Below are positions 38,587 through 41,786 of a DNA stretch of 64,000 bases, piece after piece; positions within the stretch are counted from its first letter, which is position 1, and each line of letters opens with the position of its first letter. The notes beneath the pieces were generated by a model. That model worked only from the letters and a program-made list of their open reading frames with translations. It was not told the DNA's origin and made no database searches. A program made the translations under genes and the position numbers. Origin of the DNA: Candidatus Xenobia bacterium (GTDB lineage: Bacteria > Vulcanimicrobiota > Xenobia > Xenobiales > JADMJV01); the NCBI GenBank assembly GCA_037968995.1, contig JBBKWP010000363.1, forward strand, positions 5,219-69,218. The letters are read 5' to 3'.

Positions 38587-41298
38587 ATGGCAGTGATATC
38601 TGGAGACTCCGGTGGCGGGAAGCGCCGTGCCGATGCGGTTGGAAAGTCAAGATCCCCAAGGACGACAAGCTCCAAAAAAGCTATCAGAAATCCCGATTCC
38701 GGCTCAGGGTTGGAGACGCGGGGGCTTCGACGGTTAGATAGATCGACCAGTAGCTCAGTCGGTGGAGCCGGAGTTCTTAACAGATCATCGAGCACCGTCC
38801 CCTCTGACCCCAGATCATCTCGTGAACTTGTGGCCGACCAGGCCGCGACATCGAGGTCCTTGGTCGGGCCTAGACTGAGTAATGATTCCAGCACGGCTGC
38901 GGGGACCGAATCGCGTTCAGCGTATTCAGAGGCAGAACTGCAAGAGCAACTCGAAGGCCAAGTCACGGGACCAAGAAATCCAGAGGACCGAGAGGATGCA
39001 GACGCCGCACAGACCGCGGTCGCAATTTTGGGACCCGAACCAGAATCGGATGACAGTTCTGAGTCCACCGGCTTCGAGAACATCGACGGCCCGGTTACTG
39101 GAAGCGTCGACGGCGCGGGCGTGGGAGCGACAGGCACAGCGTCAATTAGTGCTGAGCGCGGCGGTTTTGGTGGGTTCATCGACGACTTGGGCGAGGGCGT
39201 CGGGAATGTCCGTGAAACCGTTGGCGAAGCTGCGGATTCCGGTTACAGCGCGATCGTCAATGTACAGGCGGACATTTCGACCGGAGTGACCGATGCGGCA
39301 GGCTCGGCGTTGGGTAGCGCTTTGGATGGCGTTGGCGCCCACGGTGTCGCCGATCAAGTGCGTCAAGCCGCAGACGGAGCGACGGAACATTTGCAAGAGC
39401 AGGCGGATTTTGCCGAAGAACAAGGTCTGGGAGCGTCACTTGTTCGCGGCTTCGACGACTTAGGCAACGTGGCCAGCGGGATCATTGAAGCCGGCAGCGA
39501 GACGATTAATCGTCCTGTGGAATTTCTGGCATCTGCGGGAACCTCGGCGCTAGAGAGCGGCGGGGACCGGGTCGCTGACTTGCTGGATGATGTGGGTGCT
39601 GGAGGAGTTGCTGACGCGGTTCGCGGTAGCACCCAGATCGCCTCAGAACAAATTCTAAACATCGTCGAGCAACAGAGTGAAGTCGTCCACGACGTTTTTT
39701 ACGGCGTCGGTGAAGGCGTCAATTCCGCTGTAACCGGTGTTGGCGCTGCCGCTGGGAATCCTATCGCCACTGTGCAGGGGCTCTCGACGGTGCTGGAAGC
39801 TGCCAATCCTCTTTTGCTACCCGGTCAGATCATTCGTAATGGCGGGGATGTTGGTGGCACTGTTCAACAGAACGTGGAGGTCCTTCAGGCCGTCGGAGAA
39901 GGCTTGATCGCCCCAGCGATTGAGTCTGGCCGCGAAGAAGGTGTGGTTGCGGGTATCGCTCATGCAGGTTTCGATATTCTGACGACCATCGGGACAGGTG
40001 GCGGTGGAGCGGCGACGCACGTCGATGACGCCGCGGTTGTAGCCAATGCACTGGACAACATCGTGGGTGCCGTTGACAACGTGGCGGGTGCGGCCGACAA
40101 CGTGGCGGGTGTGGCCGACAATGTGGTCGGTGCTGCTGACAACGTGGCGGGTGCTGCTGACAACGCGACGGCATCCGCGGACAACGTGACGGGGTCGGTT
40201 CAGGAAACTCCGGGCTCAACGACGAACACGAGACCCGGTCAAAACTCCGACGTAGTAGTAGACGATATCTCCCCCAACGGATTGATTGACGATCTGCCGC
40301 CCGGCGTGCGAGAACTGGACCAGAACTCGATTGCTGAGATTATTGATCGGACTGAGGTCGACATTCCCGAAGGCCTCGAGAATCCTCTCGTTCGACCGAC
40401 TTCCGCACAATTTTATGATGAAGCGGGCCTGGGACCTCAGTTTGAGTTTCAAGTTGGTGACCAAAGCGTTGCGGTGTCACGGCCCTATCAGGCTACTATA
40501 AACGGCGGGGGAAGTCGGCCAGCGGTCGTTGCGTACATAGAAGATGCAGACGGAGTTGTTCGACCCAGGTCTTTGTATCTGAGCAATTCCCAAGGGGGAT
40601 GGAGAGAAGCTTCGCACGCGGGGATTACTGGCGGCGGCGGAGGGATCAGTGATTGGATTGGAAAGGGCGGTGACGGCATCGCTGAATTCGCGACCGACTT
40701 ACCTATCCAAACCCAGCAACCGTTGAACGGTCTTTTGGGGGGCGCCCCACCTTTAGAACTCGCCGCTGATATTTCGAGGCAAGCCTTTCTCGGGAACCTG
40801 CCGTTTGGAGAAAGTTCGACCAGTGTTCCCTTCTCTCAGGCGACAAACAACGTGCAGGGATTGGGAGTGGGAGAAGCATTAGGCGACACAAGATTCATCG
40901 AGCCTTCGAGTTTTCAATACAACTCCCCCGGTCAGGCACCAAACTTTGCCAATGGACCAGGCGCGGAATTCACCGTCCAACATCCCATAAGAGGTGAAAT
41001 TTCGGCTCAATCCTTCACATCCGCCGATGGCTCTTTGGAGTATCTTTTCTACACAGATGATGGTGGGCGCGCATGGATCGGCCAAGTCGATAACTTGGAC
41101 TCCCCCATCAATGAATTCGGCGTTCGCAGTGAGCCGATCGATCCCGGAAGCCTGACCACTCCAGCAATTGAGTATGACACTCAAGTGCCCCCTGGGTTCG
41201 CGGGCCCTTCAGTGGGCAACGGATACGTGGACATAAGTCAATACACCCATAGTTTGCCTCCCGTTCGCGACTACTTGAACTGGTTGGCAGCTTCCTAA
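38587..41298 (+). CDS. large acidic protein of unknown function (903 aa): disordered Ser/Arg/Asp head, Gly/Ala/Asp/Val-rich helical repeats, heptad array, unassigned C-terminal domain
   Basis: ATG 38587 with GGGAG 5 nt upstream. Uninterrupted 2.7-kb frame. Internal protein-level duplication (LDGVGAHGVADQVRQAADG versus LDDVGAGGVADAVRGSTQ). 7x heptad DN[IV]xGxx. No signal peptide, TM, Cys or internal Met in the translation. No family recognised. Confidence 0.7.
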   Translation: MAVISGDSGGGKRRADAVGKSRSPRTTSSKKAIRNPDSGSGLETRGLRRLDRSTSSSVGGAGVLNRSSSTVPSDPRSSRELVADQAATSRSLVGPRLSNDSSTAAGTESRSAYSEAELQEQLEGQVTGPRNPEDREDADAAQTAVAILGPEPESDDSSESTGFENIDGPVTGSVDGAGVGATGTASISAERGGFGGFIDDLGEGVGNVRETVGEAADSGYSAIVNVQADISTGVTDAAGSALGSALDGVGAHGVADQVRQAADGATEHLQEQADFAEEQGLGASLVRGFDDLGNVASGIIEAGSETINRPVEFLASAGTSALESGGDRVADLLDDVGAGGVADAVRGSTQIASEQILNIVEQQSEVVHDVFYGVGEGVNSAVTGVGAAAGNPIATVQGLSTVLEAANPLLLPGQIIRNGGDVGGTVQQNVEVLQAVGEGLIAPAIESGREEGVVAGIAHAGFDILTTIGTGGGGAATHVDDAAVVANALDNIVGAVDNVAGAADNVAGVADNVVGAADNVAGAADNATASADNVTGSVQETPGSTTNTRPGQNSDVVVDDISPNGLIDDLPPGVRELDQNSIAEIIDRTEVDIPEGLENPLVRPTSAQFYDEAGLGPQFEFQVGDQSVAVSRPYQATINGGGSRPAVVAYIEDADGVVRPRSLYLSNSQGGWREASHAGITGGGGGISDWIGKGGDGIAEFATDLPIQTQQPLNGLLGGAPPLELAADISRQAFLGNLPFGESSTSVPFSQATNNVQGLGVGEALGDTRFIEPSSFQYNSPGQAPNFANGPGAEFTVQHPIRGEISAQSFTSADGSLEYLFYTDDGGRAWIGQVDNLDSPINEFGVRSEPIDPGSLTTPAIEYDTQVPPGFAGPSVGNGYVDISQYTHSLPPVRDYLNWLAAS
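40054..40200 (+). repeat. seven in-frame tandem 21-bp repeats (gacaacgtggcgggtgcggcc consensus) encoding DN(V/I)(A/V/T)G(A/S)(A/V) heptads
   Basis: Units delimited by hand at 40054, 40075, 40096, 40117, 40138, 40159 and 40180. The central five are near-identical and the flanking ones are degenerate. Confidence 0.9.
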
Positions 41299-41786
41299 TG
41301 AATTTTCACCCGAAGCCCCAAGCCCTCGTACAGGCGGCTCGTGACGGATTGGGCAAAGGTGCCGATCTTCTTCATGTGCTGGCGATACTCCGAATTTTGG
41401 AGGGCTCCCCGGTCAACCCCGAAGCTTGGCTGTCCCACTTGCGCAAGAGTGCTTGTCTAGCATCGTCTCAACATTTGAACATCGCGCTTACCAAATTGCG
41501 TGAGTTTTTTAACCGCATCGATGCGGCTACCGGCACTCTAGCGAGTGAAGACGCTCGTCCGGTGCCTGACGACGCTGTGACGCTCCTCTTCGAGTGGGCA
41601 GACTGCATCGAGCGCCAGGCCGAACTCACCAGCGCTGTTGCGCCGGAAGGCGCTCTCGCCCAGAACAAAGCGAGATTCACAAGTTTAGACGCGCGCCTTG
41701 GGGCGACGCCCCATTTGCACTCCAGTCTTCGCGATCGTGCGACGAGATTGGCGAGCCTTCACGAGTTGCCTGTAGCCGCTGACTGA
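41298..41786 (+). CDS. small helical hypothetical protein coupled to the 903-aa gene
   Basis: Its ATG shares 1 nt with the upstream TAA (TAATG at 41296-41300). 162 aa, Leu/Ala-rich, no TM, no family recognised. Confidence 0.55.
   Translation: MNFHPKPQALVQAARDGLGKGADLLHVLAILRILEGSPVNPEAWLSHLRKSACLASSQHLNIALTKLREFFNRIDAATGTLASEDARPVPDDAVTLLFEWADCIERQAELTSAVAPEGALAQNKARFTSLDARLGATPHLHSSLRDRATRLASLHELPVAAD

Follow-up and report, generated by a model that had tools for sequence, protein, structure and literature searches.

In polymorphic toxin systems, a trafficking part at the N-terminus is followed by central repeats or a linker and then by a C-terminal payload that varies (Zhang, de Souza, Anantharaman, Iyer, & Aravind, 2012, PMC3482391). 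AvrRxo1-Arc1 is described as a type III effector that resembles zeta toxins and is accompanied by a small chaperone/antitoxin gene (PMC4938570; bioRxiv 10.1101/2023.12.02.569727). We compared these systems with a gene pair found in a 64,000-nucleotide (nt) stretch of a Candidatus Xenobia bacterium genome (contig JBBKWP010000363.1; the whole stretch is hereafter the window). The pair consists of a large open reading frame (ORF) of 903 amino acids (aa) and a small ORF of 162 aa directly behind it. A preliminary description of this DNA had proposed a polymorphic toxin/immunity locus. Our results bore out part of that proposal, since homologues with a shared N-terminus had alternative C-termini and the gene behind the payload changes with it; neither a known trafficking domain nor secretion genes linked to the pair were found. 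Because two features of polymorphic toxins are present and two are lacking, we place the locus among polymorphic-toxin-like systems, outside the named subfamilies (LXG/type VII secretion system [T7SS], Rhs/PAAR, CdiA, MafB, and extracellular contractile injection system [eCIS]-DUF4157).

The likeness to polymorphic toxin systems lies in a common N-terminus recombined with unrelated C-termini (AvrB-like, Zeta-toxin, and the C-terminal module of the 903-aa protein, or C-module), in the small gene directly downstream, and in an accessory presence that varies between strains or species. Unlike in those systems, the catalogued leader and pre-toxin domains were undetectable (signal peptide, TPS, PAAR/VgrG, LXG/WXG, MafB-N, PT-VENN, PT-TG, and others), no signature secretion genes lay nearby, the payload is not a described toxin domain, and no orphan-cassette arrays were seen. 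AvrRxo1-Arc1 is similar in that an effector with a toxin-type domain is tightly coupled to a small gene downstream, the product of which is reported to neutralise the effector and also to assist it; the Zeta-toxin paralogues described below (P0030, P0056) fit that pattern. It differs from our locus in that our payload is not a zeta kinase, no type III secretion system is evident, and the carrier is unrelated. Type II toxin-antitoxin systems (zeta/epsilon-like) were taken as small two-gene operons, with the antitoxin usually first and a single-domain toxin. In our locus the toxin side is a multidomain protein of 903 aa, the small gene is downstream, and there is no Zeta_toxin match.

We consider it an even call that the large ORF encodes an effector of the polymorphic-toxin type, built from a new carrier and a new payload domain, and the small ORF its immunity or chaperone partner. 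The general logic of the locus is familiar from known systems, and the function proposed here is putative. New are the carrier (with a helper in some relatives), the partner family, and a payload family that is very large, lacks annotation, and has a confidently predicted fold with no counterpart in the PDB.

Exchangeable C-termini and a cognate partner gene

The two ORFs are on the forward strand at 38587..41298 and 41298..41786. Their junction reads TCC TAA TGA, and the ATG of the small ORF begins on the final base of the TAA stop. This confirmed the reported gene pair and its TAATG overlap, through which the 162-aa ORF is translationally coupled to the 903-aa ORF. A Shine-Dalgarno-like GGGAG is present at 38577-38581, 5 nt ahead of the ATG of the large ORF. 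By codon usage, the annotated frame scored best over aa ~100-903 and in the small ORF, and the scores were ambiguous over aa 1-100. The start codon was fixed by the first 102 residues, which are conserved in the homologue P0017 (phmmer domain E 1e-12).

The architecture of the 903-aa protein can be divided into a carrier, a repeat and linker, and an exchangeable C-terminal module, because its carrier homologues diverge completely past the repeat array. The leader (aa 1-102; 38587..38892, + strand) is basic (net +9) and Ser/Thr-rich, contains KKAIRN, SVPSD, SRELV, and SRxLxGPR, and is probably disordered; besides P0017, it is conserved in P0019 (2.6e-6). It is followed by a variable, acidic, Gly/Ala-rich region with a net charge of -29 (aa 103-285; 38893..39441, +). 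The Gly/Ala-rich carrier core (aa 286-485, with similarity to ~542; 39442..40041, +) shows the pattern GVGEG..NP.xT.QGL..NP..LP..NGG..EExG.VA..HA.FD..TT.GTGG and was matched by phmmer in P0019 (6e-38), P0017 (2e-30), P0030 (1e-30), and P0056 (2e-27). The stretch at aa ~286-485, described earlier as amphipathic repeats, is a conserved domain. As for the "clear internal duplication" also described, a motif pair with 11 of 18 residues in common exists (aa ~246-263 and ~332-349), and no DNA repeat was detected. The core also aligned to aa 186-285 of a Vulcanimicrobiota protein at locus L007 (hhalign probability 94%, E 9e-8), in which Ala/Gly repeats, an FHA domain, and the C-module come after the core. 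A PDB profile search with the carrier-core alignment A6 gave noise only, and a metagenome scan with the carrier-core alignment A7 returned one locus.

Behind the core, the claimed sevenfold heptad array proved real: Tandem Repeats Finder reported 6.7 copies of DNVAGAA with a period of 21 nt and 78% matches (40054..40193, +). The carrier homologues have an ARLGDDA array at this position. A Pro/Asp-rich linker follows (40194..40293, +) and is the swap junction, beyond which the homologues diverge into other C-terminal domains. In alignment A5, similarity among the carrier homologues stops at the heptad array, and similarity to C-module proteins starts at aa ~570-610 of the 903-aa protein. The four carrier homologues (865-923 aa) share the leader and the Gly/Ala core. 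In place of the C-module, two of them have an AvrB_AvrC domain (P0017, 1.5e-20; P0019, 4.7e-19) and two a Zeta_toxin domain (P0030, 1.7e-12; P0056, 1.6e-13). AvrB-like and Zeta-toxin domains are established effector and toxin domains. Swapping of the C-terminal module, as anticipated for a polymorphic toxin, was hence seen directly among these proteins.

A direct database search with the 162-aa protein returned only the query itself. Inspection of the genomic loci showed, however, that a small helical ORF lies directly 3' of the C-module gene in 7/7 loci of the closest subfamily, at distances of -4 to +67 nt. Besides the window pair, these are L005 (169 aa), L007 (154 aa), L044 (155 aa), and L045 (187 aa), each with a 4-nt overlap, L002/L029 (137 aa, 3-nt gap, +4), and L046 (117 aa, +67 nt). 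Pairwise similarities were 5e-6 for window-L007, 7e-4 for window-L005, 1e-8 for L044-L045, 4e-7 for L005-L045, and 4e-22 for L002-L046; the window ORF is linked to those of L044, L045, L002, and L046 by transitivity. The seven small ORFs form one family, joined by weak yet significant similarity. A hidden Markov model (HMM) of this family found only these small ORFs among all ORFs of 47 loci, and no further member in the loci of the candidate phyla radiation (CPR) or of the AvrB and Zeta types.

The N-termini of the upstream proteins vary across the seven loci (carrier, two FHA domains, or two ~55-aa repeats), and it is therefore the C-module that the partner accompanies. Since the small ORF follows the C-module whatever the N-terminus, we take the 162-aa product as its cognate partner. 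Partner identities (21-41%) are below those of the C-module (35-58%), the partner being the faster to diverge. The co-occurrence of the two genes, on which the preliminary description had made its reading depend, was therefore found at all seven loci examined in the closest subfamily. The other payloads have different neighbors: an unrelated 181-aa ORF overlaps the Zeta-type carrier gene at its downstream end, and one AvrB-type locus has a 169-aa membrane-like ORF downstream.

The proposed mechanism would work as follows. Residues 1-102 (the leader) and 286-485 (the Gly/Ala core) would act as a lineage-specific carrier for export or delivery. Recombination would swap payloads at the heptad array and the Pro/Asp linker, which would provide a flexible junction. 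The C-terminal ~310 aa would be the payload, a new beta-rich domain, and would probably either bind an anionic target or modify it. The 162-aa protein would be made in step with the effector through translational coupling, and would bind the payload, either neutralising it in the producer (immunity) or keeping it competent for delivery (chaperone).

The presence of the pair is variable. The upstream DAHP synthase clusters at >=90% identity with a protein on the Logan/ENA contig L001 (SRR7479578), whose gene order equals that of the window over >20 kb. The shared order comprises, on the upstream side, a glyoxalase-family protein, PRPP synthase, PGI, a 299-aa ORF, ThyA, a 199-aa ORF, and DAHP synthase, and, on the downstream side, a 232-aa TPR protein, a 661-aa TPR Ser/Thr kinase, a radical-SAM protein, Rho, and ABC genes. 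The distance from the DAHP synthase gene to the convergent 232-aa TPR gene is 13 bp in L001 and 3.5 kb in the window; an accessory segment of ~3.5 kb (38361..41858) is thus missing at the syntenic site of the congeneric contig. The flanking genes encode proteins 95% and 91% identical, with DNA ~80% identical, and L001 therefore represents a related species. The borders of the segment had no flanking direct or inverted repeats, tRNA, or integrase. The G+C content at third codon positions of the 903-aa gene was 0.56 compared with 0.616 +/- 0.031 in 30 neighbor genes (z = -1.8), which is mildly atypical. On this synteny, the gene pair has the character of an accessory cassette, present here and absent in L001; gain and loss both fit.

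The C-module family

The C-module (aa 570-903, about 310-334 aa; 40294..41298, +) belongs to a large uncharacterised family. A search with the last 334 aa returned P0006 (42% identity), P0007 (40%, with two FHA domains), and two distant stand-alone proteins. Exhaustive HMMER searches gave 742 representative clusters (at 50% identity) with E<=1e-3 and 335 with <=1e-10, of which a few are carrier-only matches, such as the four carrier homologues. Among the best 150 matches listed, nearly all align to aa ~570-900, with phmmer E values of 5e-63 to 1e-16. No Pfam match was found on the C-module region in the >50 members scanned, no NCBIfam, PADLOC, or PHROG model covers it, and PDB sequence searches with the single sequence and with profiles A1 and A8 gave no match.

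An AlphaFold2 model of the C-module (40294-41295) built from 77 sequences reached a pLDDT of 91.4 and a pTM of 0.91. The predicted fold is beta-rich, with two sheet-plus-helix lobes. Foldseek gave no PDB match for this model (best E 0.049, TM 0.15), and the fold would be new relative to solved structures. An earlier model from five sequences had a pLDDT of 74 and no Foldseek match. In BFVD, three uncharacterised Klosneuvirinae proteins matched the 77-sequence model with E 3e-9 to 3e-5 and TM ~0.5 (Indivirus A0A1V0SDE5, Hokovirus A0A1V0SF17, and Klosneuvirus A0A1V0SKW6). From this shared fold it follows that the domain spans CPR bacteria to viruses of eukaryotes. A scan of viral contigs with alignment A3 gave no locus.

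The family has recognisable sequence motifs (Y-x-S-x-S-x-G-x-W-R, W-x-G-K-G, E..(S/T).LP...Q, P..EY, and Y.D). Arg, Lys, Ser, Tyr, and Glu are frequent among the polar residues kept in >=75% of its members, and the 903-aa protein retains every one of these residues: R644, R661, Y664, S666, S668, R673, K693, E700, Q710, S812, D824, R828, E862, Y863, Y880, D882, and Y886. They may form a putative site for an anionic ligand or substrate.

Among GTDB species representatives, the C-module was present at 32 loci, mostly in Saccharibacteria and other Patescibacteria. Among the remaining loci are several metagenome-assembled genomes (MAGs) of Gammaproteobacteria, of which one is a 1.6-Mb chromosome, as well as a Micrarchaeota bin and a MAG of Vulcanimicrobiota. 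Host proteins are about 300-4000 aa long. A motif located the C-module in 103 matches, and in 69 of these it forms the very C-terminal end of the protein. In 32 other members, the domains beside it were FHA (3), eCIS_core (1), ADPrib_exo_Tox (1), DnaJ, TPR, PPR, and PG_binding_1. eCIS_core (DUF4157) marks the cargo proteins of eCIS. Its presence in 1 of the 32 scanned proteins, and that of ADPrib_exo_Tox in another, indicates that the C-module can travel in toxin-delivery polypeptides. Unlike such cargo, the 903-aa protein has no eCIS_core, no contractile-injection genes lie nearby, and there were no PHROG matches.

A broader joint reading has four parts and is, taken together, a tentative proposal that we hold at clearly less than even confidence. 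The C-module would be an unrecognised effector fold common to Saccharibacteria and other CPR, reduced-genome Gammaproteobacteria, the Micrarchaeota bin, Klosneuvirinae, and a few free-living Terrabacteria-like lineages, so that, with the exception of these last, its holders would live on or in other cells. The C-module would act on a universal anionic target, the 162-aa protein would found a new immunity family, and the leader and Gly/Ala core, with or without the 230-aa helper described below, would mark an undescribed delivery route.

If the toxin reading is true, the locus would give a handle on an unannotated family of >=742 clusters at 50% identity with no solved structure. This family is found above all in episymbiotic CPR bacteria, for which few host-interaction effectors are known. 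The locus is experimentally tractable, with a payload, its cognate partner gene, and carrier paralogues bearing known toxins. Together with the 230-aa helper that precedes its long form, the carrier would be a candidate for a trafficking module not described before, serving the polymorphic toxins of little-studied phyla.

Three side observations concern the surroundings of the family. The nusG-rplK cluster, one of the most conserved in bacteria, holds a C-module gene in one saccharibacterial locus (see below), and rplK is likewise just downstream of the C-module gene in L027 and L028. Several Saccharibacteria have an ORF of 608-620 aa directly upstream of the C-module gene, without Pfam or PHROG match (L022:2809-4653, L023:3268-5112, L024:3373-5235, L035:3329-5155, L038:1287-3137); it may be a second conserved partner in this group. 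The N-termini of P0006, P0010, and P0012, which are among the closest C-module proteins (for example, L044:3029-4588), have two tandem ~55-aa repeats without Pfam match, of the pattern V.V.RS.G..E.GW....DG.v.......K......L...NP.L, which may be small SH3- or Tudor-like binding domains.

Delivery, helper, and competing explanations

The composition of the 903-aa protein is as reported, acidic (pI 4.1) and free of Cys, with one Met and five Lys; the leader has a net charge of +9, and the remainder is strongly acidic. A Kyte-Doolittle scan (19-aa window, threshold 1.6) agreed with the earlier statement that there is no transmembrane helix or signal peptide. This composition, which is also Gly/Asp-rich, had suggested a surface protein with a chaperone, either S-layer-like or type-1-secreted; the internal repeat array would suit such a structural protein too, and one distant family member does bear PG_binding_1. 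We regard this explanation as highly improbable. The 903-aa protein has no RTX-type calcium-binding repeat, SLH, or other surface-anchor Pfam domain, and the DNVAGAA heptad is its sole repeat. No type I secretion genes (ABC exporter and membrane-fusion protein) flank the pair, and the downstream ABC genes are also present in L001, which has no cassette. The homologues of the N-terminal part bear enzymatic toxin domains, and the C-module is predicted to be globular, is conserved, has a putative ligand site, and has no structural match to surface proteins.

With both proteins, Pfam and NCBIfam returned nothing above threshold, which agrees with the earlier remark that none of the usual trafficking domains is visible in the 903-aa protein. 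Neither protein had a confident match to a housekeeping or structural family in Pfam, NCBIfam, PDB, PADLOC, or PHROG, and the claim that the family is undescribed holds within the libraries searched. A full-length search with the 903-aa protein among 5.8 billion proteins returned only the query, and low-complexity words filled the candidate list.

The sole Pfam entry on the 903-aa protein was T7SS_signal (aa 320-356), with E 0.033 and 14.5 bits compared with a cutoff of 27; this sub-threshold match falls on a compositionally biased stretch, and matches of E 0.03-0.04 occur at the same place in two carrier homologues. LXG/WXG-type T7SS toxins have upstream helical helper (Lap) proteins. Like them, our locus has no Sec signal, a helical N-terminal carrier, a C-terminal toxin, and downstream immunity, in so far as the toxin reading applies. 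The resemblance extends to the long-form relatives of the carrier (L039, L040, L043, L047), in which an upstream gene recalls targeting helpers. The long-form carrier genes are always directly preceded by this acidic, helical gene of ~230 aa (L039:9290-9982; L040:3187-3879, on L040/41; L043:1521-2411; L047:1955-2653), whose products end in ..YF(V/A)N(W/F)N. Helper identity is 37-45% among three loci, a profile of which matched the copy at L047 with E 3e-79; the two copies scanned had no Pfam or PHROG match. Unlike LXG/WXG toxins, the 903-aa protein has no LXG/WXG100 Pfam match, no EssC/EccC-type or FtsK-like giant ATPase ORF is present in the window, and there is no helper. We treat the T7SS resemblance as a lead only.

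Residues 103-285 of the 903-aa protein align to a far longer helical segment in the four long-form carriers. The helper may bind this extra segment, and the window and L007 proteins may represent a short, helper-independent form. The L007 protein has the same short design (leader, core, repeats, C-module, and partner, and no helper), which makes the short form a recurring architecture.

Several findings weigh against an effector. Beyond the missing trafficking domain, no secretion-system genes are linked to the pair in the 64 kb except a T2SSE-type ATPase 32 kb away. The C-module has no match to a known toxin or enzyme fold by Foldseek against PDB or by PDB profile search. At least four proteins are FHA-C-module fusions, each with a partner gene downstream (including P0007, P0011, and P0013/L007), and to our knowledge FHA domains are not typical of exported toxins. 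The CPR homologues of the C-module have no partner and are set among housekeeping genes; in the saccharibacterial locus L016, a C-module gene of ~589 aa lies between nusG (4535-5083) and rplK/L11 (7014-7442). Partner and module identities correlate weakly, with a Pearson coefficient of 0.62 for non-independent pairs and a Spearman coefficient of 0.36, which is not significant. The AvrB-type locus L047 has no small downstream ORF. Lastly, tblastn and HMM searches found no 230-aa helper in the whole window, and the 903-aa protein lacks the greater part of the helical segment that all four long-form carriers have. Because the C-module is also found fused to FHA and partner-less among CPR housekeeping genes, we use the word toxin as a provisional label.

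The last two of these findings would also suit a decaying or orphaned cassette, that is, a former carrier-toxin that has lost its helper gene and helper-binding segment and, with an intact ORF, its delivery. The full-length protein is a singleton among the proteins searched, and the codon-usage score of its gene is below that of most housekeeping genes, above all over aa 600-903. We find decay improbable, as neither ORF is interrupted in the 3.2 kb, the Shine-Dalgarno-like motif is still there and so is the TAATG coupling, every family-conserved residue of the C-module is intact, and the L007 protein shares the short design without a helper.

The FHA fusions and the CPR loci, the latter also without secretion genes nearby, speak for the main rival explanation, in which an intracellular enzyme or binding module and its regulator act inside the producer, for example in phospho-Thr-dependent signalling, conflict, or abortive infection. 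The variable N-termini (FHA, repeats, Gly/Ala carrier) would then serve sensing or targeting, and the small protein would be an inhibitor or a regulatory subunit. We judge this possible and, on balance, unlikely. In its favor, most family members have no signal peptide, an N-terminal hydrophobic stretch being present in only 13 of 148; no export signal was recognised in the 903-aa protein; and the window has several genes for Ser/Thr kinases (17493-18464 and 42589-44574). The neighboring kinase, however, is also present in the cassette-less L001. No PADLOC model matched either window protein, P0007, or P0010, and the C-module co-occurs with eCIS_core, ADPrib_exo_Tox, and PG_binding_1. Moreover, the same carrier bears AvrB-like and Zeta-toxin payloads, and the Zeta-type gene is overlapped by a separate ORF, which is the pattern of polymorphic toxins and not of sensor-effector defence. 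If the intracellular explanation is true, the FHA-linked C-module and its partner would be a new signalling or conflict module. The explanation we favor is still an exchangeable effector with its partner, whose export, toxicity, and neutralisation by the 162-aa protein are putative.

Other features of the window

The genes around the pair are housekeeping genes (DAHP synthase, ThyA, PGI, Rho, FtsZ). The upstream spacer of 226 nt (38361..38586, +) is AT-rich, as noted before, with 46.9% GC compared with 52-60% in 1-kb windows. It contained no Rfam family and no structured RNA (fold z-score +0.42), its + strand had no convincing sigma-70 promoter, and promoter and terminator scans were at chance level. 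Across the window (1-64000), no tRNA gene and no Rfam family at the gathering threshold was found.

The pair is not the only part of the window that has no recognised family, as had been stated, because two further ORFs have no Pfam match: 6917-8197 (- strand, 426 aa), which adjoins the T2SSE-type secretion/pilus ATPase (5480-6826), and 59854-60840 (- strand, 328 aa). The housekeeping proteins of the window have only 1-3 members per 90% cluster, which indicates that the source lineage is rare. PASTA genes are present in the window and, with the T2SSE-type ATPase and the likeness of the carrier core to the Vulcanimicrobiota protein, give a hint of a Terrabacteria-like lineage. A McrB-like protein (Mrr_N + AAA_5) is encoded at 26816-28474 (+), and L001 has a similar gene. 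The longest form of the Rho ORF (45911-47977, -) has 688 aa compared with 620 aa called in L001, a gap that may reflect either a start-codon difference or an extended N-terminal insertion domain.

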